A DNA stretch of 64,000 bases from contig CAVTUQ010000007.1 in the NCBI GenBank assembly GCA_963737905.1, positions 128,001 to 192,000 on the forward strand. Direction: 5' to 3'. Source of the DNA: an uncultured delta proteobacterium (GTDB lineage: Bacteria > Desulfobacterota > Binatia > UBA9968). The notes beneath the pieces were generated by a model. That model did no database searches. It saw only the letters and a program-made list of their open reading frames with translations, and was not told the origin of the DNA. Below, piece by piece: positions 12,437 through 64,000 of this stretch (position 1 is the stretch's first letter; every line of letters starts with the position of its first letter). The position numbers were made by a program, and so were the translations under genes.

Positions 12437-12461
12437 AAAGTTTGGTTTCTTGCGGGCTGCC

Positions 12462-13564: not shown

Positions 13565-13578
13565 TTTATGGAACAGCG

Positions 13579-14861: not shown

Positions 14862-15336
14862 GTTTTTATCCTCCGTGTTAGTGTGACGTTTCAGATGAAT
14901 CAGTTGGGTTGGTTCATTTCTACGTCCTGATGAGTTACGTCATGGCTTTCCTCCTTTCCGAACTATCAGAGTGGACTACGGTATTAGAGGGGCTAATGGA
15001 GGTTTGATGAAGATACCCCGACAGTCCTTTTGCCGAAGCAGCCTGGCTTTATCAGAGTGGCGGCGGGAAGGCAATGGTTTTTTTCAAGCCTTGAGATTGG
15101 CGGCGGCCGGTGGAAGGTCGAAGTAACTTTGCTTGACCTCAGCCGGTTCTTATGGTGTCTTGTTGGGAACCGGTTGTGGAAAAGGCCCATCTTTTCATGG
15201 CGTTTAACTGCTTCACTCCAATGTACTAAAGGAGTAAGTCTCCGCTCGTCGATTCGTCTGCGCCCGGAGCCAGGACTTTCTGAATAGCTGGACGTGTTAG
15301 CTTTTCAAAATCTTTAAGAAATACTGCAGGTATAGA

Positions 15337-47787: not shown

Positions 47788-48826
47788 ACCAAAGAAAATT
47801 CTCGTGGTTCTTCATGGATCCATCGGTGATGTGACCCGTGCCTTGCCGCTGGCCAATCTTATTCACCGTGGTTTTCCCGGGGCGACCCTCGCGTGGGCTG
47901 TCGAACCGCCCTCTCTGCCGCTGGTGGAGCATCATCCCGCCGTGGATGAAGTCATTCTTTTTGATCGTCCCCGCTGGTGGAGCCAACTGGGTCCGTTCCT
48001 GCGGAGAATTCGCGCCGAACGCTTCGATTTGGTGTTGGATCTTCAACGCCATCTAAAAAGCGGCCTGATCAGTCGCTGGAGCGGGGCGCCGCACCGTTTG
48101 GGCTTTCACAGGATTGACAGCAAGGAATGCAACTGGCTGTTCAACAATCACTACATTCCAGCTGCGGGTCACGGCATATCCAAGTTCAACCATTATCTCA
48201 AGTTCGCTGAATATCTTGGTCTTGTTCCGGAGCCGGTGGAATGGAAGCTTTCGTTGACCAAGGAGGAGCAGGTTTGCGTTGACCATCAACTGGAAAAGGT
48301 GCGCGGCGAATTTGCCACGCTGTTTGTAGGCAGTCGATGGGAGAGTAAGGGATGGTTCGCGGCCCAAATATCGTCGTGCGCGAACCTTATCCAGGAGCGT
48401 TACGGCTTTAGCATTGTTTTGCTCGGCAGCGAACAAGACGCGATCCTCGCAAGGGAAGTCGAGGTCTCTTGCGGTCAAGGCACCACGAACCTGGTGGGCC
48501 GTACCTCGCTGAAGGAAGCCGTAGGGATCATCGCCCGGGCAAAGGTCGCAGTGGGACCCGATACCGGTTTAATGCACATTGCTGCTGCAGTGGGTACACC
48601 GGTCGTATCATTGTGGGGCGCTACGAATCCGTCTCGCGCCGGGCCGTATGGGTTCGAGGAACTAGTGATTCAAGGAGAGGCGGAGTGTTCGCCCTGCTAC
48701 CGCAAGCGGTGCCCTATTGGGCGAGTCTGCATGCAATCGATCGAAGTCGAAACCATCATGGCAAAAATTGAGATCGGCCTCTCACGCGAGCGAAACTGTC
48801 CGTCGGCCTATGAAACTCGGCTCTGA
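47771..48826 (+). CDS. Glycosyltransferase family 9 (heptosyltransferase I-like)
   Basis: SIGDV, DLQRHLKS, GPDTGLMHIAAA, CSPC. Confidence 0.85.
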   Translation: MRPSPKPKKILVVLHGSIGDVTRALPLANLIHRGFPGATLAWAVEPPSLPLVEHHPAVDEVILFDRPRWWSQLGPFLRRIRAERFDLVLDLQRHLKSGLISRWSGAPHRLGFHRIDSKECNWLFNNHYIPAAGHGISKFNHYLKFAEYLGLVPEPVEWKLSLTKEEQVCVDHQLEKVRGEFATLFVGSRWESKGWFAAQISSCANLIQERYGFSIVLLGSEQDAILAREVEVSCGQGTTNLVGRTSLKEAVGIIARAKVAVGPDTGLMHIAAAVGTPVVSLWGATNPSRAGPYGFEELVIQGEAECSPCYRKRCPIGRVCMQSIEVETIMAKIEIGLSRERNCPSAYETRL

Positions 48827-49701
48827 CCACTATTACCTGCGCAAAGATGGAGGATGGTCGCTTTGGATTCTCCCTGAGGAATGGACGGAAGAACTCTGGC
48901 AGGTCGTCTTGGCGCTCGTAGAAAAGCAGCCATCCTCCAAGCACCCGCAAACGCTGCAAGTAAAAGCTCCCTTTGCTGCGGATGGTGAATTACTTTTTTT
49001 GAAAGTGTTTCACGGTTCCTCCGGCATGGGCGCGCTCAAGGGGTTCTTCCGAGATTCCAAGGCTTTTTGCTCCATGGGCCAAGCGGCCGCGTTGGCGCGG
49101 TTCAATTTCAAGGTGCCGATTACGGTGGCTGCCGGAGAAAAGAGGGAGCATCGCTTCTTACGAAAGGCATTCGTCTTGACCGTGGCAGTGAAGGGCCAAT
49201 CCTTGCCCGCTTTCCTTGGACAATACGGCTTGGGTTGTAGCGGTATTTCGCTGTTTGACAAAGCGCAACGGTTTAAAGGAGTTAGCTATGGAAGTTCGAC
49301 GCTTACATGACCTGGGCTTTGTGCACGGCGATCTTGTTCCCACGAACATCTTCGTATCCCGGGCTCCCGGAAAGGGAAGCGGTTTTTTTTTCATGGACAA
49401 TGATCGCACCCATCATTATCCGAAATGGATTCCGCAACCTTTTTGGCGGCGCAATCTGGTACAGCTAAATCGCATTCCGCTTCCTGGAATAACCCTTCAA
49501 GATCGCGTGCGGTTCTTGCGCCATTACCTCGGGGCAAGCGAATGGGGAAACAAGGAACGTCAACTGCTTGCATGGCTCGAACAGAAGACCCGTCAACGCC
49601 GTGTAGAGTGTGACGCGGTGGATTCGAGCTTGAGTTTCAGGGAGCTGATGCGGTGGCAAGAGTTAGGGCAGTGTTCTCATGAAAATCGCGCTCGTTCATA
49701 A
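48810..49701 (+). CDS. LPS kinase (InaA/WaaP/Kdo family) with an apparent +1 frameshift near 49260
   Basis: N-terminal half contains FLKVF. C-terminal half contains LHDLGFVHGDLVPTN, MDND and RNLVQLN in the adjacent frame. Confidence 0.75.
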
Positions 49702-50833
49702 GCGATTAGATAGAAGGGGCGGAACCGAATTAGACTTCTATCGGACCGCCAGCGGTCTAAAAGATCTCGGCCACGAGGTTCATTTATTTTGTAGCGAATT
49801 TGCAATTGAGCCGCCACCGGGCACTTATACGCATTCCATACCCATCGTGCCGCTAGGGCGCACGGCGCGACTGTGGAGTTTTGCCAGAGGTGCTCCAAAG
49901 ATAATGCGTCCGTTCCCATGTGACGTGGTTGTCAGCTTCGGACGTATGATCTCGCAAGATGTTCTTCGCAGCGGCGGCGGTTCCCATCGGGCATTTTTGC
50001 AGAAGTCGGGTGCGGAGGGTGGGCTCGGACGGCGACTGTGGCAAGATCTGAGCCCGTACCACCGGACCCTTCTTGCTTTAGAACAGCGACAATTTCAGCC
50101 AGATCATTACAAACGAATCCTCGCGGTATCCGAAGAGGTCAAGCGGGAACTGTTGGGTACCTATGCTATCCCCGAAGACAAAATCACTGTGATTTATAAC
50201 GGCGTGGACGAGCAGCGATTTGATTTCAGCTTAGGCGATAAATTTCGTGCGCCTATAAGACAACAATGGCATATTCCATTGGATGCGCCTGTGGTCTTAT
50301 TTGTCGGAAACGGCTTTCGCCGGAAAGGCTTGGATCGTTTGCTGAAAGCATGGAGTTCACCGCAAATGAAAGACACGTACCTTGTGGTAGTTGGGGAAGA
50401 CGCGCAACGGGCCAGGTACAAAGCGCTAGCCGAGGAGCGGGCCAGGGGTAAGGTTATCTTCGTCGGAAGACGCGACGACGTCGAGAAGTATTACGGCGCA
50501 GCGGATCTGCTGGTGCTACCGGCAGTCCAAGAGGCTTTTGGCAATGTGGTTTTGGAGGGCTTGGCGGCGGGATTGCCCGCTGTGGTGAGCGCAGTCGTCG
50601 GTGCATCCGAGATTCTCGAGGGTGGACTGGCGGAAGGGATCATCGCCCATCCAGAGGATCCGAAGGACATGGCAGCCAAGCTGTTGACGATGCTCGAGCG
50701 AGGCCGCAATCGGGCGTTTTCCGTGGAGGCCAGAAGGTTGGCTGAAGGGTATTCATGGAACAACCATTTCAAGAAGTTAGACGGGTTCCTTAAAGACCTT
50801 GTTGAAGAGGGTGGGTGTGGATCACCAGCCTGA
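49679..50833 (+). CDS. Glycosyltransferase family 4 (WaaG-like)
   Basis: GGTE, YNGVD, FVGNGFRRKGL, EAFGNVVLEGLAAGLP. Confidence 0.88.
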   Translation: MKIALVHKRLDRRGGTELDFYRTASGLKDLGHEVHLFCSEFAIEPPPGTYTHSIPIVPLGRTARLWSFARGAPKIMRPFPCDVVVSFGRMISQDVLRSGGGSHRAFLQKSGAEGGLGRRLWQDLSPYHRTLLALEQRQFQPDHYKRILAVSEEVKRELLGTYAIPEDKITVIYNGVDEQRFDFSLGDKFRAPIRQQWHIPLDAPVVLFVGNGFRRKGLDRLLKAWSSPQMKDTYLVVVGEDAQRARYKALAEERARGKVIFVGRRDDVEKYYGAADLLVLPAVQEAFGNVVLEGLAAGLPAVVSAVVGASEILEGGLAEGIIAHPEDPKDMAAKLLTMLERGRNRAFSVEARRLAEGYSWNNHFKKLDGFLKDLVEEGGCGSPA

Positions 50834-51695
50834 ATTTGTCTTGGAGAAGCGGGGATCGCTGTCGATACGGGTGGCACGGACTTTCGCCAACGACCTAGTA
50901 CCTGACATCGCGCCCGATCCGGATCGCCTGTTTCACTTACCGGGATGCGTGATCATCAAGGACCAGAGAAAAATTAAAGTCGCGCGTATCAAGGTGAAAA
51001 TTCAAGGGAACGCGAAAACGGTCTATCTCAAACGTTATAATACCTTCTCTTGGCGCTATCGGTTCGGATCTATCTTTCAGTTCTCCGGGGCCGTCAGGTC
51101 ACTCCATGGAGCTGCAATTTTGTCCCAATCCGGCATCGCGACGGCGCGTCCATTGGCTGCGGTCGACTCGAGATCATGGGGAATGTTGGACGGAAGTTTT
51201 TTTCTATCGGAGGAGATCGAGAATGGGAAGACCGCGGACGCGTATTGGCGGGAAGAACTGGTGACTATCAAAGGGAAAGAGGGAATGCAGAGGCGCAACC
51301 GGTTCTTACGACGAATGGGTGAGTTGTTTCGTCGCCTGCATGATCAAGACGTTTATCATAACGATCTCAAGGACGCCAATATTCTCGTCTGTCGAGATTC
51401 TAGTGGAGGCGCCGAGCACTTTTATCTCCTCGATCTGGAAGGCATTCGCCGCTATCGGAAGTTGAATCGGCGGCGGCAGGTTAAGAATCTGGTCCAGTTA
51501 AACCGCACGCTGGGCAAGTATCTACGAGCGACAGACAAGCTTCGCTTCCTTGAAAGCTACATGGGGTCGTCGTTTTCAAATCGAATCGATAAGAGAGATT
51601 GGGTCGCAAGCGTTCTCACACAAAGTAACCGTCTGGATCGCCTTCAAAACATCAAGGTGTCGTCTATTGCAATGGCAGGAAACACCGGCGCGTGA
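50817..51695 (+). CDS. LPS kinase (InaA/WaaP/Kdo family)
   Basis: VYLKRY, LHDQDVYHNDLKDANIL, LLDLE, KNLVQLN. Confidence 0.82.
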   Translation: MDHQPEFVLEKRGSLSIRVARTFANDLVPDIAPDPDRLFHLPGCVIIKDQRKIKVARIKVKIQGNAKTVYLKRYNTFSWRYRFGSIFQFSGAVRSLHGAAILSQSGIATARPLAAVDSRSWGMLDGSFFLSEEIENGKTADAYWREELVTIKGKEGMQRRNRFLRRMGELFRRLHDQDVYHNDLKDANILVCRDSSGGAEHFYLLDLEGIRRYRKLNRRRQVKNLVQLNRTLGKYLRATDKLRFLESYMGSSFSNRIDKRDWVASVLTQSNRLDRLQNIKVSSIAMAGNTGA

Positions 51696-51713: not shown

Positions 51714-52283
51714 ATGGCCTTTAAGTTTCAGCCACTAGAAATCCCAGACGTAGTCTTGATTGAAGCTCAGGCTTTCGCAGATGAGCGCGGCTTATTTATG
51801 GAGAGCTACAAGAGATCCGCGTTCTCGGCCCATGGGATTCACGACACCTTTATACAGGACAACTACTCTCATTCACGTCAGGGAGTACTCCGAGGGCTCC
51901 ATTACCAGAAACTGCCTAAGGCTCAGGCTAAACTGGTAACCGTTTTGAGAGGGCAAATTTTTGACGTCGCGGTGGATATCCGGCGGGACTCCCCGACTTA
52001 TCGCCGATGGGTGGGAAAGGCAATCTCCGCTCAGGATGGTTGCTTGCTTTATATCCCGGTGGGTTTTGCGCATGGTTTTTGTGTGCTCAGCGAAGAAGCC
52101 GATGTTTTTTATAAAGTCACGGCAGAGTATGCCCCGGAGCTAGATCGAGGCGTCATTTGGGACGACCCCGACATCGGTATTCGTTGGCCCATCCGCGCTC
52201 CGACGGTTTCCCTCAAAGATGCCAAGCTCCCTTTGCTTAAATCATCCGACAACGATTTTCTATACGAGGAGACGGCCTTGTGA
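51714..52283 (+). CDS. rfbC: dTDP-4-dehydrorhamnose 3,5-epimerase
   Basis: DERG.FME, QDNYSHS, LRGLHYQ, DVAVDIR, GFAHGF. Confidence 0.93.
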   Translation: MAFKFQPLEIPDVVLIEAQAFADERGLFMESYKRSAFSAHGIHDTFIQDNYSHSRQGVLRGLHYQKLPKAQAKLVTVLRGQIFDVAVDIRRDSPTYRRWVGKAISAQDGCLLYIPVGFAHGFCVLSEEADVFYKVTAEYAPELDRGVIWDDPDIGIRWPIRAPTVSLKDAKLPLLKSSDNDFLYEETAL

Positions 52284-52341
52284 ATATCTTGCCTAGGGAT
52301 CGTCTGCCCCCGATTGGAAGCCAGGGAAGGAGATCCTCAAC

Positions 52342-53223
52342 GTGATGCGAGTCGCCGTCATCGGCAGCACGGGACAATTGGGGACCGACCTTCTAGATGT
52401 TTTGGTGGAAGCCGGACACTATGAAGTGTTCGGACTCAGACATCACGAAATCGAATGCACCGATCCGGTATCGATAAGAAAGGCATTTAAAACGGCGCGC
52501 CCGGACATCGTCGTCAATTGTGCCGCCTTTGTCCGGGTTGATGAATCCGAGGATCGTCCGGACGATGCCTTTCGGGTGAACAGCCTGGGCGCCCTCGCTG
52601 TGGCGCGGGCTTGCGCAGAGATGGGCGCCGTCTGTGTTTACATCAGCACTGACTACGTTTTTGATGGCAAAAACGGATCTCCCTATACGGAAAGCGACGC
52701 GCCGCATCCGATCAACATTTACGGCGTCTCCAAACTGGCGGGAGAATACCTCGTTCAGCAGGCTTGTTCCCGCTGGCTCGTAGCGCGAATGGCGAGCCTA
52801 TTTGGAAAAGCCGGTTCCAGCGGGAAGGGCGGAAACTTCGTAGAAACAATCTTGGCCAAAGCAAAAGCCGGCGAGCCGTTGAGGTTAGTCGACGATATCC
52901 GAATGTCCCCCACATACACCCGAGACGCGGCACTGGCCTTGGAAAGACTTCTTCGGGAAGGGGCTCTAGGGCTTTTTCATTTGGTGAATGCCGGCAATTG
53001 CACCTGGTATGAGTTTGCCTGCAAAGCTCTGGAAGTCGCGGGGCTGCGTCACAGAATCGAGCCAATATTGTCTTCGAGCTACCCGATGAGAGCCCGCCGT
53101 CCTAAAGATTCCAGCTTGGAAAGCACGAAACTCAATCGGTCTCTGAAGGAGTGTCTCCGTCCCTGGGAGGACGCCCTCGAATCCTATTTGCGGGGGAAAG
53201 GCTATCGGTCCTCGTCGGCCTAA
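52342..53223 (+). CDS. rfbD: dTDP-4-dehydrorhamnose reductase
   Basis: GSTGQLG, NCAA, ISTDYVFDG, YGVSKLAGE, SPTY, RP..S.L. Confidence 0.92.
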   Translation: MMRVAVIGSTGQLGTDLLDVLVEAGHYEVFGLRHHEIECTDPVSIRKAFKTARPDIVVNCAAFVRVDESEDRPDDAFRVNSLGALAVARACAEMGAVCVYISTDYVFDGKNGSPYTESDAPHPINIYGVSKLAGEYLVQQACSRWLVARMASLFGKAGSSGKGGNFVETILAKAKAGEPLRLVDDIRMSPTYTRDAALALERLLREGALGLFHLVNAGNCTWYEFACKALEVAGLRHRIEPILSSSYPMRARRPKDSSLESTKLNRSLKECLRPWEDALESYLRGKGYRSSSA

Positions 53224-53332
53224 AGATTACTGGTGCTGAAGTTCTGAGTAGGCGGCATCGGTAAAGTATGCTATAGAGTAACCCTACATTCGAAAATAAC
53301 CTTAAGTCTCTAAAAATTTTCCCAACCCATCC

Positions 53333-54271
53333 ATGAATTTGCATGTTCTCGTCACCGGCGGTGCTGGCTATCTGGGGTCTGTGTTATGCGAGCGTCTGCT
53401 CGCCGCCGGATACCGGGTAACAGCCGTGGATGATCTGATGTATCAACAGCGAAGCTTGCTTCACCTCTGTGCCAACCCACACTTCGATTTTGTCTTGGGA
53501 GATGCGCGGGACAAAGAGCTGATGCAGCGTCTGGTGAAAGAGGCCGATGTGCTGATTCCCCTTGCCGCCATCGTAGGAGCACCCGCGTGCGACCGAGACC
53601 CGTTGCTGGCACGGTCAGTCAATCTGGAAGCCGTTCGACTCCTCAATGATTTGCGGAGTGCTCAACAGCCGATCATCTATCCGACTACCAATAGCGGCTA
53701 CGGTACGCAGTCCGGCGACCTCTTTTGCACGGAAGATACGCCACTGCAGCCGATCTCACTTTACGGTCAGACCAAGAGTCAAGCTGAGGCAGAACTATTA
53801 GAGGCGCATAATGTGATTACGTTAAGATTGGCGACGGTGTTCGGCATGTCGCCGCGCATGCGTCTTGACTTGTTGGTCAACCATTTTGTCCATGCGGCCA
53901 TCACGGATGGTTACCTTGTCATTTTCGAGAAGGACTTTAAGCGCAATTACATTCATATTCGCGACGTGTCGGATTGCTTTGTCCATTGCATCGATAACTT
54001 TAAAAGAATGGCGGGGCGACCCTACAATGCCGGCCTGGACGCCGCCAACCTGTCCAAGGAAGAATTGGCATTGAAGATCAAAGCGTACGTGCCCAATTTC
54101 TACATTCACTTCGCCCAGGTAGGATCCGATCCGGATAAGCGCAATTACGTCGTTTCGAATCAGCGATTGCGTGAGGCTGGCTTTGAAGCCCGGCGCTCGC
54201 TGGACGATGGAATTGGAGAGCTGCTCAAAGGATATCGGATGACGGGACGGGCTCGGTTTAAGAACGTTTGA
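53333..54271 (+). CDS. Extended SDR resembling GDP-D-glycero-D-manno-heptose 4-dehydrogenase (Campylobacter Cj1427-like)
   Basis: TGGAGYLGS, PLAAIVGAP, YPTTNSGYG, YGQTK, RLATVFG.SPRMRLDLLVN, DPDKR. Similarity to Cj1427 is from recall, not a computed alignment. Confidence 0.75.
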   Translation: MNLHVLVTGGAGYLGSVLCERLLAAGYRVTAVDDLMYQQRSLLHLCANPHFDFVLGDARDKELMQRLVKEADVLIPLAAIVGAPACDRDPLLARSVNLEAVRLLNDLRSAQQPIIYPTTNSGYGTQSGDLFCTEDTPLQPISLYGQTKSQAEAELLEAHNVITLRLATVFGMSPRMRLDLLVNHFVHAAITDGYLVIFEKDFKRNYIHIRDVSDCFVHCIDNFKRMAGRPYNAGLDAANLSKEELALKIKAYVPNFYIHFAQVGSDPDKRNYVVSNQRLREAGFEARRSLDDGIGELLKGYRMTGRARFKNV

Positions 54272-55050
54272 AAGGCCATGGCGCAGTGCCAACGGAAATG
54301 TCAACTTCGAACTTGCGACGAACCGATGCCGTGCGTGAATTAACTGAGGTCACGGCGGCGATACTCGTTGGGGGACTGGGGAGCCGGTTGCGTCCCGCGG
54401 TGACCGGTCGTGCGAAGGCGCTTGCCAACGTGGGAGAACGACCCTTTCTCACCTATCTGTTCGATCAGCTCGTTGCGGCGGGCACGAGAGACGTCGTGTT
54501 GTGCACAGGATACCTAGGCGATCAGATACCCATGATATTCGGTGAATCCTATGGCACCCTCCGCCTTAGCTATTCCCGGGAATCCACGCCACTGGGGACG
54601 GCAGGTGCGCTTAGATTGGCGCTGCCATTGTTCAACTCCAATCCTGTGTTGGTGATGAATGGCGATTCGTATTGCGACGCAAACCTCAAGGAGTTTTGGT
54701 TTTGGCACGGTAGGAGGCAGGCGGCGGCGACGTTGTTTCTCACCAAGGTTTTGGATAGCGAGCGTTTTGGGCAAGTACAAGTCGATCACTATGGCCTGGT
54801 AACCGACTTTAAAGAGAAGGGCAGCGGAGGGGGCTTGGGTTGGATTAGTTCGGGTATTTATCTGCTAAGCCGTGATTTGCTGGCGGAGATTCCAGCGGAT
54901 CGCGCCGTCTCTCTGGAGCGAGAGGTTTTCCCGAACTGGATCGGCCGCCGACTTTATGGCTTTCAACGGGAGGCCCGATTTATAGATATCGGAACGCCGG
55001 AAGCCTATGAGAGCGCACAATCGTTTTTCGCTACGGGTTTGGGGAGATGA
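54268..55050 (+). CDS. hddC: Nucleotidyltransferase, HddC-like heptose-1-phosphate guanylyltransferase
   Basis: ILVGGLGSRLR, PLGTAGAL, NGDS, SLEREVF, FIDIGTPE. Adjacent to gmhB and hddA. Start uncertain. Confidence 0.75.
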   Translation: MKGHGAVPTEMSTSNLRRTDAVRELTEVTAAILVGGLGSRLRPAVTGRAKALANVGERPFLTYLFDQLVAAGTRDVVLCTGYLGDQIPMIFGESYGTLRLSYSRESTPLGTAGALRLALPLFNSNPVLVMNGDSYCDANLKEFWFWHGRRQAAATLFLTKVLDSERFGQVQVDHYGLVTDFKEKGSGGGLGWISSGIYLLSRDLLAEIPADRAVSLEREVFPNWIGRRLYGFQREARFIDIGTPEAYESAQSFFATGLGR

Positions 55051-55616
55051 AGCGGCGGCCATTCGTATTGCTGGATCGCGATGGAACCATCATCGTTGAG
55101 CGCCATTATCTTGCAGACCCGCGGCAGATTGAATTTTTGCCCGGGGCAATCAACGGCCTGCGTCAAATGCGCACCCTGGGACTTGGGTTAGTGGTGGTAA
55201 CCAATCAGTCTGCAGTCGGACGCGGCTTCTTTGATGAGAGCCACTTGAATCTCATTCATCGCCATCTCTGCGAACTCCTGAAAGACGAGGGCATCCAGCT
55301 AGGAGGCATCTTTTTTTGTCCCCATACGCCCGAGACGAATTGTTCCTGCCGCAAGCCTCGCCCCGGTCTGGCCGAGCGAGCGGCCCAAGAGCTGGCATTT
55401 GATCTGCAAGCGAGTTTTCTCATCGGTGATAAACCCGCCGATATTGAATTGGGGCGAAATGTCGGGGCAACGACATTTCTAGTGCGCACGGGTTATGGTG
55501 CGGGCTTTGTGAACGATCCGACCGTCCATCCAGACTACGTCGCCAATGATTTGTCGGCGGCGGCTCAAATCATGGAGAGCTTGCTCGATGCCAATGAGCG
55601 CAACGTGGTGCCATGA
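55047..55616 (+). CDS. gmhB: D-glycero-D-manno-heptose-1,7-bisphosphate 7-phosphatase
   Basis: LDRDGT, TNQS, CPH...CSCRKP, IGDK..D. Confidence 0.9.
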   Translation: MKRRPFVLLDRDGTIIVERHYLADPRQIEFLPGAINGLRQMRTLGLGLVVVTNQSAVGRGFFDESHLNLIHRHLCELLKDEGIQLGGIFFCPHTPETNCSCRKPRPGLAERAAQELAFDLQASFLIGDKPADIELGRNVGATTFLVRTGYGAGFVNDPTVHPDYVANDLSAAAQIMESLLDANERNVVP

Positions 55617-56689
55617 TCATTAGCAGGACGCCATTTCGTGTTTCTTTTTTCGGTGGCGGAACCGACTACCCGGTATGGTACCGCACCTATGGTGGAGCGG
55701 TGCTGGCCACGACCATCGACAAGTATTGCTATCTAACTTGCCGTTATTTGCCGCCCTTTTTCGAACACAAGATTCGCGTCGTCTATTCGAAAATCGAGAA
55801 TTGCCACAGCGTTGAGGACATCGCCCATCCGGCTGTGCGGGAGATACTACGCTACTGTAGGATCGATCGTGGTGTGGAAATTCATCATGATGGCGATCTG
55901 CCCGCCCGCAGCGGAATGGGCACGAGTTCATCTTTCACCGTGGGCCTGTTGCATGCTCTTTATGCTCTCAAAGGACAGATGCCGTCCAAAGCGCAACTGG
56001 CTAGGGAAAGCATCGGTATCGAGCAGGAGATTCTCAAGGAGACCGTGGGGTCTCAGGATCAAGTCTTGGCGGCCCACGGCGGTCTCAATCATGTGGTTTT
56101 CCATACCAGCGGTGAAATTACGGTGAAGCCCGTAACGGCAACTGTGGGACGGGTCAACGAGCTCAATCGGCACTTGATGCTGTTCTATACCGGGATTCGG
56201 CGGACAGCCTCCGATGTTGCGGAAAGCTACGTTAATGGTCTGGAGGACAGGGAGAGGCAACTCCGAATTATTGGCGACCTGACAAACGAAGGTGTGTCGG
56301 TTCTTTGCGGCAAGAGCAAAATCTTTGTTTTTGGCGAATTGTTGCATAAAGCCTGGCAAGTAAAGCGGGATCTCAGCTCTAAAGTTTCGAATTCGGAGAT
56401 TGAAGAGATCTACACCGAAGCGATGTCAGCTGGGGCGGTTGGTGGAAAACTGCTGGGCGCCGGTGGGGGCGGGTTTATTCTTTTTTTTGTGCCCCCTGCC
56501 AAACACACTGCCGTGAAGCGAAGACTCAACAAGCTAATTTATGTTCCCTTCAAGTTTGAATCCTCGGGTAGCCAAATTATTTTTTTTGATCCGGAACAGG
56601 ATTATTCTCGAGAGGAAAGGGCGCGCATATTTCCACCTGACTTGGTCTTTCGGGAGCTTTCGATCAAGGCCATCAATCATAAACCGTGA
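55613..56689 (+). CDS. hddA: GHMP kinase, D-glycero-alpha-D-manno-heptose-7-phosphate kinase-like
   Basis: RTPFRVSFFGGGTD, DLPARSGMGTSS, GSQDQ, GKLLGAGGGG. Confidence 0.82.
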   Translation: MIISRTPFRVSFFGGGTDYPVWYRTYGGAVLATTIDKYCYLTCRYLPPFFEHKIRVVYSKIENCHSVEDIAHPAVREILRYCRIDRGVEIHHDGDLPARSGMGTSSSFTVGLLHALYALKGQMPSKAQLARESIGIEQEILKETVGSQDQVLAAHGGLNHVVFHTSGEITVKPVTATVGRVNELNRHLMLFYTGIRRTASDVAESYVNGLEDRERQLRIIGDLTNEGVSVLCGKSKIFVFGELLHKAWQVKRDLSSKVSNSEIEEIYTEAMSAGAVGGKLLGAGGGGFILFFVPPAKHTAVKRRLNKLIYVPFKFESSGSQIIFFDPEQDYSREERARIFPPDLVFRELSIKAINHKP

Positions 56690-57624
56690 AGCAAACCGAT
56701 CGTATCTACGTTGCCGGCAGTGAGACTCTCGTCGGAAAAGGGCTCCTGTGTCGATTGGCTTTGGCCGGCTATTCTAATGTCGTCGATACTTCGTCCGTAG
56801 AGCCAGACCTGACCGATGGCGCGAAGGTCAATGCGTATTTCGAAGCCACGAAGCCGGATTATGTCTTTCTCGCGGCCGGCACGTCGGGAGGTATTGGAGC
56901 CAATCAAAAGTATCCCGCCGACTTGATGCTCAATAATCTATTGATTCAATGCCAGATCATTCGCAGCGCCCAACGGCATGGTGTCCGAAAGCTCTTATAT
57001 TTGGCAAGCTCCTGTACCTATCCGCGCTCCAGTCCGCAGCCGATGCAAGTCAAATCCCTGATGACAGGGCCATTGGAGGCTACCAGCGAAGCCTACGCGA
57101 TGGCAAAGATTGCCGGCATCAAGCTATGTCAGGCGTACCGCCAGCAACATGGTGCGGATATGATTAGCGTAATCCCGGGTGATGTCTTTGGGCCCGGCGA
57201 TGATTTCAGCTTGGAGGACGGCCATGTCATCGCCGCCCTCATTCGTAGAATGCATCAAGCAAAAATTGACGGCGCGCAAACGATCGAAGTCTGGGGCTCA
57301 GGTTCGCCGCGGCGGGAATTCATCTTTGTCGATGACGTTGCGGATGCGGCCATCTTCTTGATGCAACGCTATAGCGATCCGACGCCCGTCAACGTGGGCA
57401 ACGGAGCTGAGATGTCGATCAAGGATATTGCCGAGCTGATTCGAAGAGTGGTCGGCTACGAGGGCCAGTTGCGATTTGATCCCGCAAAGCCGGATGGCAT
57501 GCCGCTGAAAGCGCTCGACTCCAGCGAGCTGATGGCGATGGGATGGCGGCCAAAAGTTTCTCTGCGGGCCGGTTTGGAAGAAACCTATCGCTGGTTCATG
57601 GATACCAACAAAGATGCCGTCTAA
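56686..57624 (+). CDS. GDP-L-fucose synthase-like epimerase/reductase (Fcl/WcaG/ColC family)
   Basis: GGIGAN, SSCTYP, YAMAK, HVIAALI, WGSGSPRREF, KPDGMP. Confidence 0.85.
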   Translation: MKQTDRIYVAGSETLVGKGLLCRLALAGYSNVVDTSSVEPDLTDGAKVNAYFEATKPDYVFLAAGTSGGIGANQKYPADLMLNNLLIQCQIIRSAQRHGVRKLLYLASSCTYPRSSPQPMQVKSLMTGPLEATSEAYAMAKIAGIKLCQAYRQQHGADMISVIPGDVFGPGDDFSLEDGHVIAALIRRMHQAKIDGAQTIEVWGSGSPRREFIFVDDVADAAIFLMQRYSDPTPVNVGNGAEMSIKDIAELIRRVVGYEGQLRFDPAKPDGMPLKALDSSELMAMGWRPKVSLRAGLEETYRWFMDTNKDAV

Positions 57625-58567
57625 AGAGATATACGAGAGGCTCTACCGATCGCTCTACCGGATTCGGCGGGCAGAGGAGGAGATTGCGCGAATCTATCCC
57701 AGCGACAAGATCAAGAGTCCGGTACACCTTTCCATCGGGCAGGAAGCGGTTTCCGTTGGAGTCTGCGAAGCCCTGCGGCCACAGGATGTGGTTTTTGGGA
57801 CCTACAGGAGCCATGCCTATTATTTGGCAAAGGGTGGCGATCTAAAAAAGATGATTGCCGAACTTTACGGCAAAGCCACGGGTTGCGCCAAAGGGAAGGG
57901 AGGTTCCATGCATCTTATCGACGCAGCTCATGGGATCATGGGCGCTTCGGCCGTGGTGGGGACGACGATCCCCAATGCCGTCGGTTATGCCTACGCGCTA
58001 AAGCTGCAAAGAAAAGACTCTATTGTGGTTAGCTTCTTCGGGGACGGCGCGACGGACGAGGGAGTCTTTTACGAAAGTCTAAATTTTGCCGCACTGAAGC
58101 AGCTGCCGATTATTTTTGTGTGTGAGAATAATTTTTACGCCATTCATACCCATTTGCTGCACCGGCACAGAGACGTGAATTTATGCGAACGGGTAAGCGC
58201 CTACGGCATTCCCGCCGAACAGATCGCGGCCAACGACATACTCAAGATTAATGAACGGGTAAAGGCTGTTGTTGACCTGTTGCGCGCCAACCAAGCTGGA
58301 CCGTTCTTCTTCGAATGCTTGACCTATCGCTGGAAAGAGCATGTTGGACCCAACGATGATTTCCATTTAGGCTACCGCAGTTACGAGGAGGCTCGTCCCT
58401 GGATAGAGGGAGACCAGGTTAGGCGGCTGTCGGCTCTTATGGCGCCGGAAAGCCGTGGGGGTATAGAGGCCCAGGTGGAGGAAGAAATCCAAGCGGCCTT
58501 CGCCTGTGCGGAGAATGATGCCTTCCCGCAGGCACACGAGTTGCTGACCGATGTGACTGGAGACTAG
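57614..58567 (+). CDS. ThDP-dependent enzyme, E1-alpha-like subunit
   Basis: HLSIGQEA, YRSH, GKGGSMH, GDG...ENN ThDP motif, YRWKEHVGP. Confidence 0.9.
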   Translation: MPSKEIYERLYRSLYRIRRAEEEIARIYPSDKIKSPVHLSIGQEAVSVGVCEALRPQDVVFGTYRSHAYYLAKGGDLKKMIAELYGKATGCAKGKGGSMHLIDAAHGIMGASAVVGTTIPNAVGYAYALKLQRKDSIVVSFFGDGATDEGVFYESLNFAALKQLPIIFVCENNFYAIHTHLLHRHRDVNLCERVSAYGIPAEQIAANDILKINERVKAVVDLLRANQAGPFFFECLTYRWKEHVGPNDDFHLGYRSYEEARPWIEGDQVRRLSALMAPESRGGIEAQVEEEIQAAFACAENDAFPQAHELLTDVTGD

Positions 58568-58569
58568 AC

Positions 58570-59616
58570 GTGGAGCGCCTTTTATCCTACGTGGATGCGA
58601 TTCGTGAAGCCACGGATCAGCAGATGGCAGAAGATCCTTCCGTCGTTGTGTTTGGGCTCGACGTGGACGATCCTAAAGCCATACAGGGAACGACCCGGGG
58701 GTTGGCAGAGAAGTATGGCCCCGAGAGGGTTTTTGGCACCCCACTTTCCGAGGAAGCGATGACCGGCGCGGCCATCGGTATGGCCCTGGCTGGCTTACGT
58801 CCCATCCATGTCCATATCCGGATGGATTTTCTCATGCTGGCGATGAACCAGCTCGTCAATGTCGCTGCCAAAAGTCGCTATATGTACGGCGGGCAAGTTC
58901 ATGTGCCGATGGTGGTTCGCTGCATGATCGGCAAGAGTTGGGGCCAAGGAGCGCAGCACTCGCAAGGGTTGCATTCTTTTTTTATGCACGTTCCCGGGCT
59001 GAAGGTCGTCGCTCCCACCAATCCCTACGATGCCAAAGGCTGTTTGATACAGGCGATCAGAGACAATGATCCTGTGATTTACGTCGAGCATCGCATTCTT
59101 CACTTCCAAAAGGGAATCGTGCCCGAGCCGCTCTACGGGATTCCACCCGGGAAGGCGCGTGTGTTGGAGGAAGGGAAAGACGTCACCCTGGTCGGCATTT
59201 CCTACATGCTGACGGAATGTCTGAGAGCGCGGCGCTACCTTGAGACTGTCCACGTTCAGGCGGAGGTGATCGACCCGATCTGGCTGAGTCCCTTGGATAC
59301 CGAGACAATCGTCCAGTCGGTCAAGAAGACCGGGAGGTTGTGCGTCGTCGACAACGGCTGGACTACGTGCGGTGCCAGCGCCGAAATCGTGAGCCGCGTC
59401 ATTGAGCGATTGCAAGGCGAAAGGCAGGTCGTCATCCATCGCATGGGGTACGCGCCCGCGACGTGTCCGCCGACACCTTCGCTCGAAGATCTCTATTATC
59501 CGAACGCCCGCACTATCGCCTCGGCCGCCTACGATTTGGTCAAGGGCGGCCATAATCGCTGGTTGCCGCAAGAGCGCGAAGAGCTTCAGGAGATGGAATT
59601 CCGGGGTCCGTTTTAA
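58570..59616 (+). CDS. ThDP-dependent enzyme, E1-beta/transketolase-C-like subunit
   Basis: TPLSE, G.RP, NVAAK, GAQHSQ, PGLKVV, DPIWLSPLD. Confidence 0.9.
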   Translation: MERLLSYVDAIREATDQQMAEDPSVVVFGLDVDDPKAIQGTTRGLAEKYGPERVFGTPLSEEAMTGAAIGMALAGLRPIHVHIRMDFLMLAMNQLVNVAAKSRYMYGGQVHVPMVVRCMIGKSWGQGAQHSQGLHSFFMHVPGLKVVAPTNPYDAKGCLIQAIRDNDPVIYVEHRILHFQKGIVPEPLYGIPPGKARVLEEGKDVTLVGISYMLTECLRARRYLETVHVQAEVIDPIWLSPLDTETIVQSVKKTGRLCVVDNGWTTCGASAEIVSRVIERLQGERQVVIHRMGYAPATCPPTPSLEDLYYPNARTIASAAYDLVKGGHNRWLPQEREELQEMEFRGPF

Positions 59617-59624
59617 CTGCAACG

Positions 59625-60816
59625 GTGGACACTCCGACAAATCTCGATTGGCCCTTGATGAAAAACAATATCTCAAGGGCGGACCTCGCTGTTGTTATTA
59701 GTTTCCTTCAGCAGGATGATCCGATTCTCACTCAAGCCAGCCAAGTGCAAGCGTTCGAGAAAGAATGGTCGGCTTGGCTTGGCGTGAAACACAGCGTTTT
59801 CGTAAACTCCGGTTCCTCGGCCAATCTGTTGACGATCGCTGCCCTTCGAGAGCGATACGGTTTGGGGGAGATCATCGTTCCAACGCTAACCTGGGTATCG
59901 GATATTGCGTCGGTCATTCAGTGCGGATTCAAGCCTGTTTTCGTGGATATAGATCGTCGCACCCTGGGGATGGATAACGCAGAGATAATCGGCAAGATCA
60001 CATCCCAGACTAAAGCGGTCTTTTTGACCCACGTGCTGGGGTATAATGCCCTCAGTCAATCTCTGATGGACGAATTGGACGCGCGTAAAATTCCCCTGAT
60101 CGAGGATGTTTGCGAGTCTTACGGGGCGACTTTTGCCGGTCGAAAGCTCGGCACCTTCGGACTCATGGCTGATTTCTCCTTCTACTACGCGCATCATCTA
60201 ACGACGGTCGAAGGAGGAATGATATCCACCAACGATGGGGACTTGTACGAGACTCTTCGGATGCTTCGCTCCCATGGAATGGTGCGCGAGTCGAGCTCCG
60301 CTGCATTGCGGCAATCCTATGCGGAGAAGCATCCTGACCTAAACCCGGATTTTATCTTTGCCTTCCCGGCTTATAACATGCGCAGTACGGAGATAAGCGC
60401 TGTCATGGGTCGCTCACAAATCAAGCGTCTTGATGAAAACAATAGGCTCCGATCCGAGAATCTGGCCCTGTTCCTGAAGAGTCTGGATCCTGCAAAGTAT
60501 CGGATCGATTTTGAAACGGCAGGCAACTGTAACTATGCGTTCACACTCGTACTCAAGCGACCAGACCCTGTGCTTTGTGATAAAGTCATGAAAACGCTGG
60601 ACTGCTATGGCGTCGAATATCGTCGGGGCACCTCCGGAGGGGGAAATCAACTTCGCCAACCTTATTTAAAACGACTGTTGGGCGGGCCGGACCTCAAGGC
60701 AATTTCCCAACGTGGAACATATCCATTTTTACGGTTTTTATATTGGCAACTATCCTGGACTGGAGCGTGAAAAGATTCTCGCCTTGTGTTCGCTATTGAA
60801 CAGTATTAAGGAGTGA
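59625..60816 (+). CDS. DegT/DnrJ-fold PLP enzyme, ColD-like NDP-4-keto-sugar 3-dehydratase, with an apparent +1 frameshift near 60700
   Basis: VNSGSSANL, IEDVCES, SFYYAHHLTTVEGG (His at the Schiff-base Lys position). C-terminus continues in the next frame as FPNVEHIHFYGFYIGNYP...IKE*. Confidence 0.82.
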
Positions 60817-60863
60817 CGACTCTGCCCGAGAGTTCAAGTGTTTTTTCAGAGTCAAATTCTCGG

Positions 60864-62369
60864 ATGACAAACCGCAAATTGGACCTCGTGTTGGTTAACT
60901 CTGGTAATCGAAGACAGGTGTTTCAGTCGCTCGCAGAGGATTTGGCGGCCGTTGAGCCTCCCGTTTGGGCAGGGTTGATAGCCACGTTTATTCGGGCCCG
61001 CGGTTTTGCGGTTCAAATCGTGGACGCTGAAGGGGAGGGGCTGAGCTTCGATGAAACAGCAAATCGAATTATCGATATGGATCCCACCCTCACAGCGGTC
61101 ATCGTTTACGGCCACCAACCTTCCGCATCCACACAAAACATGCCGGCGGCGGGGGAACTGTGTACGGCACTCAGGGAGAGAGCTCCCAATCTTAAGACGA
61201 TCCTGGTGGGAGGCCATGTAGCGGCCCTACCGGAACGTACTCTGCTTGAAGAAAATGTTGATTTCACCTGCGACGGCGAAGGGCCTCATACGATCCTCCA
61301 ATTGCTTCAAGCTCTGACGAACAAGGAAACCGAGCTCCGAAAAGTCGGCGGCCTGGTGTACCGGAGCGGGGGGACGATTGCCCGGTCTGGTCCAGCAGCG
61401 CTGGTCAGCGACTTGGATACAGAAATGCCGGGCATGGCTTGGGACCTCTTGCCGATGCAGAATTATAGGGCGCATAATTGGCATTGTTTTGGTGATTTGG
61501 TACGCCAGCCCTATGCTTCGTTGTACACGACTTTAGGCTGCCCCTTCCGTTGTAGTTTTTGTTGTATTCAGTCGCCTTTCAAATCGGGCGAATCGTTAAT
61601 GGGACTCAAGGCTGCGACGAATAGCTATCGACTGTGGAAACCGAAGACGATTATTACTGAAATTGACAAGCTCGTGAATCAGTATGGGGTTCGTAATATC
61701 AAAGTAGCGGATGAACTGTTTGTTCTTAATCCTAAACACGTGACCGATCTTTGTGATCTCCTCATTGAGCGGAATTATGATCTCAATATCTGGGCCTATG
61801 CGAGAGTCGACACGGTCAAAGAGGCAATGGTGGAAAAGCTCAAACGAGCCGGCGTTAACTGGCTTGCCTTTGGAATTGAAGCCGCGAGTGAACGAGTCCG
61901 CGATGATGTCGCAAAAGGCTTTGATCAGAATGATATCGCAACAACCATCGGCAAAGTCAGGGCTTCGGGTATTAACGTGATCGGCAATTTTATTTTCGGC
62001 CTGCCTGAGGACAACCTGTCGTCTATGCAGGCGACTCTCGATCTCGCGGTAGAACTCAATTGCGAGTTTGCAAATTTCTACGTCGCTATGGCCTATCCAG
62101 GCTCCCAGCTCTACAACGATGCTGTCCGGAACGGTTGGCCTTTGCCTGAGACTTGGAATGGCTATTCCCAGCATGCGGTGGATACGCTTCCCCTGCCGAC
62201 GAAATATCTGTCTGCTGGGGAAGTTTTGCGGTTTCGCGATGATGCGTTTCGGGTGTACTTCAAAAATCCCAACTATTTGACCATGATATCCAGGAAGTTC
62301 GGGCCCCAGACCTGCGCGCATATTGATGAAATGGCCTCCCATCGCCTCGAACGGCGTTACGCTTCCTGA
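60864..62369 (+). CDS. Cobalamin-binding radical SAM protein (class B methyltransferase-like)
   Basis: N-terminal B12-binding domain (PPVW, VGGHV..LPE), GCPFRCSFC, FGIEA, FIFGLPED, YPGS.LY. Confidence 0.88.
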   Translation: MTNRKLDLVLVNSGNRRQVFQSLAEDLAAVEPPVWAGLIATFIRARGFAVQIVDAEGEGLSFDETANRIIDMDPTLTAVIVYGHQPSASTQNMPAAGELCTALRERAPNLKTILVGGHVAALPERTLLEENVDFTCDGEGPHTILQLLQALTNKETELRKVGGLVYRSGGTIARSGPAALVSDLDTEMPGMAWDLLPMQNYRAHNWHCFGDLVRQPYASLYTTLGCPFRCSFCCIQSPFKSGESLMGLKAATNSYRLWKPKTIITEIDKLVNQYGVRNIKVADELFVLNPKHVTDLCDLLIERNYDLNIWAYARVDTVKEAMVEKLKRAGVNWLAFGIEAASERVRDDVAKGFDQNDIATTIGKVRASGINVIGNFIFGLPEDNLSSMQATLDLAVELNCEFANFYVAMAYPGSQLYNDAVRNGWPLPETWNGYSQHAVDTLPLPTKYLSAGEVLRFRDDAFRVYFKNPNYLTMISRKFGPQTCAHIDEMASHRLERRYAS

Positions 62370-62418
62370 ATTCAAAGCTCTATTAGGTCGGTTGATGGAG
62401 ATTTTGTTTCAGTCGAAT

Positions 62419-63336
62419 ATGGCGAGTCCTCTAGTCACCGTTATTCTTTTCGCCCACGCTCCCTACGCGAAGTTTTTGCCGTCTTCGTTGGAATCCATAC
62501 TCCATCAATCGTATCGCGATTTGGAGGTCCTAGTTTTAACAGATGGAAGCAAGGACGTCGGGATTGTGATTGAGCGATATATGGATGATGGGCGGGTCAA
62601 GCTCTGCGCCCAGGCGCACCCGTACTTCCTGGAAACAGCGAATGAATTGATGATGGAGTCTAAAGGGGAATATCTCGGCACGTGGAATAGTGACGACATC
62701 TATAATGACAAACATGTCGAGCTGCTCGTTCAGGCCTTGGTGAATGACCCCGAGGTGGGAGGCGCATTCGATAATACCGAATATTTCAGGGAGTCGGAGC
62801 GAAGTGAAATAAGCGAGGGCTTGATTGTGCCCGAGGACAGCGCAAAAACATTATCTTCGCGGCGCCTATCGGTTCAGCATATTTTCAACGAAAATATCAT
62901 GACCGGTCCTTCTTCGCTCATCAAAAAGGCCGCATTTGAACGTGTCGGTGGTTATGACCGCAAAATCCGGCTCAACTGCGACCTGCACTGGTTTTATCGG
63001 CTCGGAGCCTACTTCCCTATTCGGTTCGTGAACTATGTTGGAGTGAGAAAACGGATTCATCCCCTGAATAACACCGCTGTGAATCCCCATTATGAGTTTG
63101 GCGTGACAGAGCTAGAGGACATTCGCGATTACTATCCTGAAGTCTACCAGCGGATTGGTAAAAGTGTTTTCAACAGGAAGCTTGGGAGAAAATATTTTCG
63201 CCTCGGATCTTATTACGAGGCGCGGGGTCAGCTCGCCCAAGCACGGCAGGCCTATAGAAAGGCGATGATCCTCCGCAAGCTTAGTTTCCGTTATAGTTGG
63301 GAGTATTGTCGATCCGCTTTCTTCCCTGGTTCCTAG
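62419..63336 (+). CDS. Glycosyltransferase family 2 with a C-terminal TPR-like helix pair
   Basis: SLESILHQSY, WNSDD, VGGYD, C-terminal YFRLGSYYEARGQLAQARQAYRKA. Start uncertain. Confidence 0.85.
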   Translation: MASPLVTVILFAHAPYAKFLPSSLESILHQSYRDLEVLVLTDGSKDVGIVIERYMDDGRVKLCAQAHPYFLETANELMMESKGEYLGTWNSDDIYNDKHVELLVQALVNDPEVGGAFDNTEYFRESERSEISEGLIVPEDSAKTLSSRRLSVQHIFNENIMTGPSSLIKKAAFERVGGYDRKIRLNCDLHWFYRLGAYFPIRFVNYVGVRKRIHPLNNTAVNPHYEFGVTELEDIRDYYPEVYQRIGKSVFNRKLGRKYFRLGSYYEARGQLAQARQAYRKAMILRKLSFRYSWEYCRSAFFPGS

Positions 63337-63461
63337 AGAGAATCGGCTGTTTCTCACTTTCGCCTAGAATTGAAATCCACAGCCCACGGCACTGGCGGGT
63401 GCAACGACGAGTTAGACCGTTCTCTACGAGTTCACCAGGTCCGGTGCGATTCTAAATGTTC

Positions 63462-64000
63462 ATGGCTTCGCTTCCCCATGTAAGTGTCATTGTGCCGACG
63501 TATAATCGAGGCGAAAGCTTGGAAAGGTTACTCACAAGTCTGGGCGCGTTGGAGCAGTCGGATTCGATCCTGGCTGAAGTGATTATTGTTGATAACGGCT
63601 CGACGGATAATACTGGAGAAATCCTGCTTCGGGAGAAGAGAAAGCGAAATCGATTTGATTTACGGGTGTCGAAGGAAGAGACCAAGGGCAAATCGAGCGC
63701 ATTGAACCAAGGTATCGGTCTCGCCCGGGGGGAAATCCTGATTGTTGTGGATGACGATGTCGTGGTGGACCATCGGTGGATGACTGAACATTGGGAGTGT
63801 CACCATGTCAGTGAGTTTGGCGCGGTTCAAGGCCGGGTTCTTCCGGGGGTGGACCCCCAAGGACGGCCAGCAGATCCGAGCCGGCTTCGGGAATATAATA
63901 TCCCCATCGTAGATTATGGCGGCGGCATTCGGCCCATCCGTGGATTCACCGGGACGAACGTTTCATTCAAGCGGGATATCGTTAGGCAAGTGGGGCTTTT
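63462..64000 (+). CDS. Glycosyltransferase family 2 (runs off the window end, not in ORF track)
   Basis: Translated by hand: MASLPHVSVIVPTYNR...VDNGSTD...ALNQG...VDDDV...GTNVSFKR. Confidence 0.88.
   Translation, partial: MASLPHVSVIVPTYNRGESLERLLTSLGALEQSDSILAEVIIVDNGSTDNTGEILLREKRKRNRFDLRVSKEETKGKSSALNQGIGLARGEILIVVDDDVVVDHRWMTEHWECHHVSEFGAVQGRVLPGVDPQGRPADPSRLREYNIPIVDYGGGIRPIRGFTGTNVSFKRDIVRQVGL

Follow-up and report, generated by a model that had tools for sequence, protein, structure and literature searches.

A 64,000-nucleotide (nt) stretch of DNA from an uncultured member of the Binatia (contig CAVTUQ010000007.1, positions 128,001 to 192,000; hereafter the window) carries nine tightly coupled genes at positions 53333-62369 of the + strand, and the question that they raise is which sugar this set of enzymes makes. 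The genes run from an extended short-chain dehydrogenase/reductase (SDR) to a radical S-adenosylmethionine (SAM) enzyme with a B12-binding domain. A preliminary description had read them, together with adjoining genes, as a pathway for a heptose analogue of yersiniose, 3-deoxy, branched at C4 and perhaps methylated. According to our analysis, the nine genes on balance appear to form a self-contained, horizontally spread cassette for an unusual GDP-sugar derived from D-glycero-D-manno-heptose 7-phosphate. This GDP-sugar would be used by neighbouring glycosyltransferases, which differ among loci. As to its identity, we tentatively propose a GDP-linked, caryose-type carbocyclic nonose (4,8-cyclo-3,9-dideoxynonose).

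The open reading frames (ORFs) of the window were listed, scanned against Pfam and NCBIfam, and compared by sequence with the PDB. All ORFs claimed in the preliminary description are present at their + strand positions and each of its family assignments holds, as does the tight coupling by overlapping stop and start codons: from the SDR to the radical SAM gene, the junctions measure -4, -4, -4, -4, -11, +2, +8 and +42 nt. Every NCBIfam match of the nine genes lies below its equivalog cutoff, so that the assignments given here are made at the level of the family.

The radical SAM protein served as query in one scan of species-representative genomes. This gave 447 relatives, of which the top 80 loci (58-69% identity), including flanks of 10 kb, were examined by tblastn with the window proteins. 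What had been seen as a single locus is in fact widespread, since these 80 loci span about 15 or more phylum-level groups. The carriers include Cyanobacteria, Planctomycetota (among them Kuenenia), Acidobacteriota, Nitrospirota, Omnitrophota and Binatia; deltaproteobacterial lineages, Myxococcota, Chloroflexi, Poribacteria, KSB1 and Spirochaetales; and Verrucomicrobiota, Elusimicrobia, Rokubacteria, Hydrogenedentota and a metagenome-assembled genome (MAG) of the Cytophagia. The DegT-family gene was found in 68 of the 80 loci, the kinase in 62, the E1 alpha and E1 beta genes of a thiamine diphosphate (ThDP) enzyme in 61 each, the Cj1427-like SDR in 56, the Fcl-like gene in 45, the HddC-like gene in 35 and the GmhB-like gene in 12. 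Many contigs are short, and 54 loci were counted as full, with at least 8 kb upstream and at least 3 kb downstream of the radical SAM gene. All 54 contain a ThDP pair (E1 in 49, a split transketolase in 6, one locus having both); DegT and the kinase are each present in 51, the Cj1427-like SDR in 45, the Fcl-like gene in 37, the HddC-like gene in 29 and, at the thresholds used, the GmhB-like gene in 10.

Synteny across relatives had been set beforehand as a check on the proposed pathway, and the genes are strongly syntenic across phyla. SDR, kinase, DegT and ThDP pair, the four core partners of the radical SAM gene, occur together in 40 of the 54 full loci, and in several of the 14 exceptions (e.g. 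L003 and L007) the cassette extends beyond the 10 kb flank. The order E1 alpha, E1 beta, DegT, radical SAM is contiguous in 41 of the 80 loci and the complete gene order of the window is found in 10. Among loci whose cassette has the same form as in the window, protein identity across phyla is 58-82%. Crude ORF clustering of the related loci revealed no additional gene family shared by more than 13 of them, and the flanks vary by locus, with Wzm/Wzt, glycosyltransferases of family 2 (GT2) and family 4 (GT4), methyltransferases or pilin genes. The conserved core is a heptose kinase, a C4-dehydrogenase, a His-type 3-dehydratase, a ThDP-dependent C2-transfer enzyme and a B12-domain radical SAM enzyme.

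Entry from heptose 7-phosphate would be provided by three genes. The HddA-like GHMP kinase (55613-56689, +) has heptose kinases as its top PDB matches (3k85, 4n3o and 4usk, 121-125 bits) and reaches 149 bits on NCBIfam HddA against a cutoff of 600. A GmhB-like heptose 1,7-bisphosphate phosphatase of the haloacid dehalogenase family (55047-55616, +) scores 164.8 bits on NF006506 (cutoff 178). The HddC-like sugar-1-phosphate guanylyltransferase (54268-55050, +; Pfam NTP_transferase) best matches PDB entries 6jq8 and 5xhw, a Yersinia '6-deoxy-D-mannoheptose pathway protein', and reaches 129.5 bits on NCBIfam HddC (cutoff 300); its Pfam domain starts at residue 30, so the true start may lie downstream. 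In L001, hddC is fused to gmhB. Neither gmhA nor a 4,6-dehydratase had been recognised in the window, and the outcome was the same in the Pfam/NCBIfam scans of its ORFs, which gave no match for gmhA (SIS) and no assignable 4,6-dehydratase. The GmhA isomerase would be encoded elsewhere in this genome, and the GT9 (glycosyltransferase family 9) heptosyltransferases 5' of the cassette suggest that the genome makes heptose. In some cyanobacteria GmhA would be part of the cassette itself: in Floridaenema fluviatile (L006), gmhA-like and NUDIX genes lie between gmhB and hddA (3483-4573), the former with 203.8 bits on TIGR00441 (cutoff 209.45). A gmhA-like SIS gene is found inside the cassette in 9 of the 80 loci, which supports the heptose origin proposed earlier, and each of two NUDIX types in 5.

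The SDR (53333-54271, +) aligns with PDB 6vo6 over residues 2-311 of 312 with 362.5 bits, the next PDB match reaching 87 bits. The PDB title of this entry is generic ('putative sugar-nucleotide epimerase/dehydratase'); we take 6vo6 to be Cj1427, a GDP-heptose C4-dehydrogenase, the code 6VO6 having been found in no paper searched. The Cj1427-like SDR would oxidise C4 of the GDP-heptose with retention of the 6-OH. Cj1427-type dehydrogenases bind their NADH tightly and recycle it with 2-oxoglutarate (PMC10680097).

The third step is expected from the DegT-family protein (59625-60770, +), a ColD/RfbH-like sugar 3-dehydratase of the His type that would depend on pyridoxal or pyridoxamine phosphate (PLP/PMP). 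Its top PDB match is ColD (2gms, 174 bits). The window sequence YAHHLTT aligns with YSHHIAT of ColD, whose first His has been changed to Asn in the mutant entry 3b8x, and this His occupies the position of the Schiff-base Lys of DegT aminotransferases. An alignment shows His at the Lys position in 60 of 68 DegT-family ORFs of the related loci; of the remaining ORFs, 7 have Lys and are all second copies far from the cassette, and 1 is truncated. There are two forms of the cassette, with a DegT protein at least 55% identical to that of the window in 37 loci and 24-38% identical in 31 loci, the divergent forms having their top score on RfbH. Removal of the 3-OH by this enzyme would give GDP-3-deoxy-4-keto-heptose. 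In the accessible text of PMC10680097, Cj1427 together with the C3-dehydratase of HS:5 yields GDP-D-glycero-4-keto-3-deoxy-heptose in vitro. By analogy with such relatives, the kinase, C4-dehydrogenase and 3-dehydratase functions have direct biochemical precedent, and the Cj1427-type and ColD-type steps of the preliminary description are supported.

The ThDP enzyme consists of an E1 alpha-type subunit (57614-58567, +; PF00676, 201.9 bits), with the GDG...NN ThDP motif at residue 143, and an E1 beta-type subunit (58570-59616, +; Transket_pyr and Transketolase_C), which reaches 273.7 bits on NF006667 (cutoff 321). In the transketolase loci, for example in a Nitrospira defluvii MAG (L077, 8012-9986) and also in L030, L043, L045 and others, Transketolase_N is followed by Transket_pyr plus Transketolase_C, and the split enzyme adjoins the radical SAM gene. 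This exchange in 6 of the 54 full loci speaks for ThDP-dependent C2 transfer as the function that has been conserved. Should a ketose be the donor there, a glycolyl branch could replace the acetyl one. In actinomycete antibiotic pathways, such as those of aldgamycin, kibdelomycin and related compounds, keto sugars receive a C2 branch from pyruvate by the action of E1 alpha/beta-type enzymes (PMC12247030, PMC4753412), and the acceptor of YerE in yersiniose biosynthesis is a 3-deoxy-4-keto sugar (PMC9306805). No E2 or lipoyl protein was present among the ORFs scanned in the window, nor among 40 non-core ORFs of six loci. Because of the YerE and E1 precedents, the lack of an E2/lipoyl gene with the pair and its replacement by a transketolase-type enzyme, we consider it fairly probable, by analogy, that the fourth step is C2 addition at C4. 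The E1 alpha/beta enzyme would decarboxylate pyruvate and transfer an acetyl-anion equivalent onto the C4 ketone, giving a 4-C-acetyl tertiary alcohol like those of yersiniose and the branched actinomycete sugars.

The fifth step is expected from the radical SAM enzyme (60813-62369, +), which would work on the 4-C-acetyl intermediate. The protein matches PF02310 (B12-binding, 48.6 bits) and PF04055 (67 bits) and has the motif CPFRCSFC at residue 243, whose CxxxCxxC pattern is invariant in 24 aligned sequences; it probably starts at the ATG at 60864, because homologues have about 501 amino acids. A protein search found thousands of homologues, the best 120 of them 66-88% identical and bearing generic names only. 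Its top curated matches are HpnJ (154 bits, cutoff 577.6) and BchE (149 bits), with methylase families lower; all 28 NCBIfam matches are below cutoff and no curated methylase family was reached. In a comparison of the family profile with the PDB, AprD4 came first (77.9 bits), then MgmA, TsrM, OxsB, CysS and TokK. An AlphaFold2 model of moderate quality (pLDDT 73, pTM 0.77) had AprD4, TsrM, OxsB and MgmA as its nearest structures in Foldseek, and AprD4, TsrM, OxsB, MgmA, CysS and TokK gave similar query-normalised TM-scores of 0.53-0.62. As modelled, the fold is that of a B12-type radical SAM enzyme.

It is tempting to propose that this enzyme closes a carbocycle. A 2022 review (PMC9092360) calls the biosynthesis of caryose unknown; the name, as given in its accessible part, denotes a 3-deoxy sugar with a C9 methyl and a C4-C8 bond. 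Mapped onto the cassette, C1-C7 of caryose would come from the heptose, C3 would be deoxygenated by the ColD-type enzyme, and C8-C9 would be the acetyl group that the ThDP enzyme transfers from pyruvate to C4. The C7-C8 bond requires chemistry at an unactivated carbinol carbon, and the radical SAM enzyme, as a relative of HpnJ and BchE, would join these two carbons. We hypothesize that a hydrogen is abstracted at C7 and that the resulting radical adds to the acetyl carbonyl C8 to form a cyclopentane. Such an abstraction and carbonyl addition would yield both tertiary alcohols of caryose. The calculated formula of GDP-caryose, C19H29N5O17P2, is the same as that of the 4-C-acetyl intermediate. 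We regard this redox-neutral ring closure as possible and slightly favour it over C-methylation, counting for it that HpnJ and BchE are the nearest curated families. The cyclopentitols calditol and bacteriohopanetetrol (BHT) cyclitol ether are also thought to be made by radical SAM enzymes, as stated in the accessible part of PMC9092360.

The Fcl-like GDP-4-keto-sugar epimerase/reductase (56686-57624, +) reaches 404 bits on NF047922 (cutoff 500), and its PDB matches are GDP-fucose synthases (GFS): 8du0 with 287 bits and E. coli GFS with 279 bits, Campylobacter-type entries scoring 190 bits. In an alignment with E. coli GFS (1bws), the catalytic Ser/Cys, Tyr/Lys and His positions are all conserved. 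With the epimerase and reductase residues all kept, the Fcl-like protein may be more than a simple branch reductase. In the sixth step this enzyme, which roughly two thirds of the loci encode, would set the stereochemistry (at C5) and/or reduce a ketone. Judging from the configurational prefixes, caryose presumably differs from D-glycero-D-manno-heptose at C5, and the Fcl-like epimerase could make this change.

The closest alternative keeps the same route to a 4-C-acetyl (or hydroxyethyl) 3-deoxyheptose and takes the radical SAM enzyme for a class B C-methyltransferase; with the Fcl-like SDR reducing the branch ketone like YerF, this would lead to a methylated, heptose-based counterpart of yersiniose. 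A B12-binding domain together with a radical SAM core fits this proposal, and the methylases TsrM, MgmA, CysS and TokK are among the structural and profile neighbours. However, no curated methylase family scores above its cutoff, the best matches HpnJ, BchE and AprD4 being non-methylases; the Fcl-like gene is missing in 17 of the 54 full loci, where the branch ketone would stay unreduced; and we know of no such sugar. Of the yersiniose-like logic of the preliminary description, the part up to the 3-deoxy-4-keto intermediate is supported and the branch is plausible, but the methylation step lacks specific support, with HpnJ and BchE far below their cutoffs and AprD4 as the best solved relative. 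C-methylation seems to us conceivable but rather doubtful.

Less probable again is a route through the side chain, in which the radical SAM enzyme acts as an AprD4-like diol dehydratase on the exocyclic C6-C7 diol to give a 7-aldehyde or 6-ketone, the ThDP enzyme lengthens the chain in the manner of DXS, and the ring is completed by Cj1427, ColD and Fcl as for colitose; a linear deoxy-nonose would result. AprD4 is indeed the best solved relative by family profile, with TM-scores of 0.60-0.68, but the match is distant (19-20% identity). The colitose pathway likewise combines ColD with an Fcl-like enzyme, the Fcl-like protein retains the epimerase and reductase residues, and the usual acceptors of ThDP enzymes are aldehydes. 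On the other side, the 4-keto group would stay unreduced in the 17 full loci that have no Fcl-like gene, and the parallel with the yersiniose order of 4-keto, 3-deoxy and ThDP steps (PMC9306805) is simpler. We therefore consider the side-chain route unlikely.

Finally, the genes might serve separate pathways, one for a GDP-3-deoxy-L-heptose or fucose-like sugar and an unrelated one for the radical SAM enzyme and the E1 pair, which might then belong to a standard 2-oxoacid or acetoin dehydrogenase; this agrees with the E1 subunits of pyruvate dehydrogenase being the closest named relatives of the pair, at family level only, but it is very improbable given a ThDP pair beside the radical SAM gene in 54 of 54 full loci from many phyla, no E2 or lipoyl gene among the ORFs scanned, and a start/stop overlap across the supposed boundary (Fcl to E1 alpha, -11 nt).

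Several points weigh against the cassette and caryose proposal that we prefer. The pathway as a whole is predicted from gene content and homology: steps 1-3 are assigned by homology to characterised enzymes and step 4 by analogy at the family level, while we infer steps 5 and 6. The matches to HddA, HddC, GmhB, Fcl, E1 and RfbH are all below the NCBIfam equivalog cutoffs, and the locus analysis covers the best 80 of 447 relatives of the radical SAM protein. The likeness of the E1 pair to AviB1/B2-type branching enzymes is one of subunit architecture. An Fcl-like enzyme with the residues for C4 reduction would be predicted to compete with the ThDP enzyme for the 4-keto intermediate. Methylases and non-methylases match the radical SAM protein about equally, so that sequence and fold do not settle its chemistry, and most characterised B12 radical SAM enzymes are methylases. 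To our knowledge, caryose has been reported only from one species of Burkholderia (now Trinickia).

The capsular GDP-heptose pathways of Campylobacter jejuni resemble the cassette in their HddA/GmhB/HddC entry, in the type of C4-dehydrogenase and in PLP-dependent deoxygenation at C3; they also include Fcl-like C4-reductases. As described in PMC10680097, however, C. jejuni pairs its 3-dehydratase with a 4,6-dehydratase and the 3-deoxy-D-glycero series arises only when enzymes are mixed in vitro; the list of its heptose-modifying enzymes in the abstract of that paper contains no ThDP or radical SAM enzyme. In the window cassette, dehydrogenase and 3-dehydratase are natural neighbours, followed by the ThDP pair and the B12 radical SAM enzyme. 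The yersiniose A pathway follows the same chemical order, with a 4-keto group, 3-deoxygenation and then ThDP-dependent acyl addition at C4 (PMC9306805). It differs in its substrate, a CDP-hexose formed via a 4,6-dehydratase (the window transferase best matches guanylyltransferases), in having no radical SAM step, and in that YerE and ErwE belong to another ThDP group, termed 'DC superfamily' in the accessible part of PMC12247030, whereas the window enzyme is of the two-subunit E1 type.

Actinomycete E1-type branching enzymes act on deoxyhexoses. Those of the alpha-KADH2 type (aldgarose, kibdelomycin KbDH, AviB1/B2, Pau11/12) share the two-subunit ThDP architecture of the window pair and, in the accessible parts of PMC12247030 and PMC4753412, use pyruvate as C2 donor without need for an E2. 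They come from secondary-metabolite clusters of Gram-positive bacteria, whereas the window pair belongs to a surface-glycan cassette with GDP-heptose found in many phyla. HpnJ, BchE, calditol synthase, AprD4 and OxsB have the same B12-type N-terminal domain and radical SAM barrel as the window enzyme; relative to these, a nucleotide-sugar substrate and a C7-C8 closure would be new. Erwiniose or caryophyllose, made from heptose plus a methyl group, was considered as the product and rejected, since PMC9306805 describes for them YerE-type enzymes, long 2-oxoacid donors and a CDP-hexose. For bradyrhizose no link is shown, the accessible part of PMC4743980 naming only a dTDP-glucose 4,6-dehydratase in an 11-gene cluster. 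Literature searches aimed at the gene combination, which covered few subscription journals, found no description of the cassette.

The setting of the cassette is that of a surface glycan, with LPS core genes upstream here and Wzm/Wzt, glycosyltransferases and methyltransferases as flanks elsewhere. Housekeeping genes occupy the first 27 kb of the window. The location after LPS core genes given in the preliminary description agrees with the lipid A/core genes, lpxD to GT4, found upstream: lpxD, lpxA, lpxI, a Gfo-type dehydrogenase, lpxB, msbA, kdtA, lpxK and an SDR, together with two GT9 genes, ORFs of the Kdo-kinase family and one GT4. This SDR (44611-45552, between lpxK and the first GT9 gene) was considered as a hidden 4,6-dehydratase and is not assignable: every NCBIfam match stays below its cutoff, including those to GalE (146 bits), LegB (141 bits) and heptose 6-epimerase (108 bits). 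Nor did the window contain a Gmd partner; the same SDR reaches only 59 bits on TIGR01472. At 37464-39195, lpxI is found where lpxH might be expected, and the Gfo/UDP-GlcNAc 3-dehydrogenase-like gene between lpxI and lpxB scores 208.6 bits (cutoff 450); these genes hint at a lipid A based on 2,3-diamino-2,3-dideoxyglucose. At 48717-49701, two ORFs overlap, one of 197 amino acids with no Pfam match and one of 161 amino acids that holds the C-terminal half of a Kdo/WaaP kinase domain. The pair resembles a single LPS kinase gene broken by a frameshift, or else the starts are mis-called, and two intact paralogues lie at 46978-47787 and 50799-51695.

The genes that immediately flank the nine were counted in the run earlier. 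rmlC (51714-52283, +; TIGR01221, 238 bits) and rmlD (52342-53223, +; TIGR01214, 294.5 bits), both above cutoff, do precede the run at 51714-53223, as described under the names rfbC/rfbD, but they are not members of the cassette, being found in 0 and 2 of the 80 loci. A GT2 gene with a weak TPR match (62323-63336, +) had also been included; its homologues, and those of a second GT2 gene cut by the window end (63456-63998, +), occur in only 2 and 4 of the 80 loci, respectively. rmlC, rmlD and the GT2 genes are outside the conserved cassette, rmlC and rmlD being neighbours in the same glycan locus, and the first GT2 is a candidate transferase specific to the window locus.

A tblastn search of plasmids, aimed at the cassette in Trinickia (Burkholderia) caryophylli, gave 4 records, 3 from Azospirillum and 1 from Solidesulfovibrio; Trinickia is absent from these records, which comprise plasmids only. 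The Azospirillum plasmids carry a diverged sub-family of the radical SAM protein (51-56% identity). According to the incomplete gene tables of PLSDB, plasmid AZO_p6 of Azospirillum lipoferum 4B (L081) has the diverged gene with Fcl-like, kinase and NUDIX genes, and plasmid p5 of A. argentinense Az39 (L082) has it with a split transketolase, a second cobalamin-dependent protein, an oxidoreductase, a kinase and insertion sequence (IS) elements. In a protein search with the Azospirillum homologue, the few named proteins among the 120 listed are from alphaproteobacteria.

Culturable carriers of the cassette include Floridaenema fluviatile BLCC-F154 and Tumidithrix elongata BACA0141. In a deltaproteobacterial MAG (L008), a prepilin peptidase and pilin-like genes with N-terminal methylation motifs directly follow the cassette (12588-15329), and a SPASM radical SAM gene lies upstream of it; the sugar might decorate pilins in this organism. 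A MAG of Candidatus Kuenenia stuttgartiensis (L036) has the cassette at 4620-13336. The S-layer O-glycan of Kuenenia contains an unidentified residue of 174.09 Da, a putative dimethyl-deoxyhexose for its authors in the accessible part of PMC5088730; by our calculation this mass corresponds to C8H14O4, a formula that the residue of a yersiniose-type sugar shares. The cassette product was considered as this residue, but a C9 product would be 218.08 Da and no link can be claimed.

In summary, the individual enzyme types are known, but we found no description of the gene combination, its substrate or its distribution, and the cassette is apparently uncharacterised. A conserved cassette whose radical SAM enzyme has no curated family name points to a common, unrecognised surface sugar, in carriers of ecological weight such as filamentous cyanobacteria, anammox Kuenenia, Nitrospira, soil Acidobacteriota and Binatia. 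It would bring to one nucleotide sugar three chemistries that we have not found described together: PLP-dependent deoxygenation, E1-type ThDP branching outside actinomycetes, and a B12 radical SAM reaction. If the caryose proposal is true, it would solve the orphan biosynthesis of caryose and provide a new radical SAM carbocyclase acting on a nucleotide sugar. Carbocyclic sugars, so far reported for one plant pathogen, would then occur on cyanobacteria, planctomycetes including anammox bacteria, acidobacteria, Nitrospira and many uncultured phyla. The cassette thus makes the question of the origin of caryose testable.

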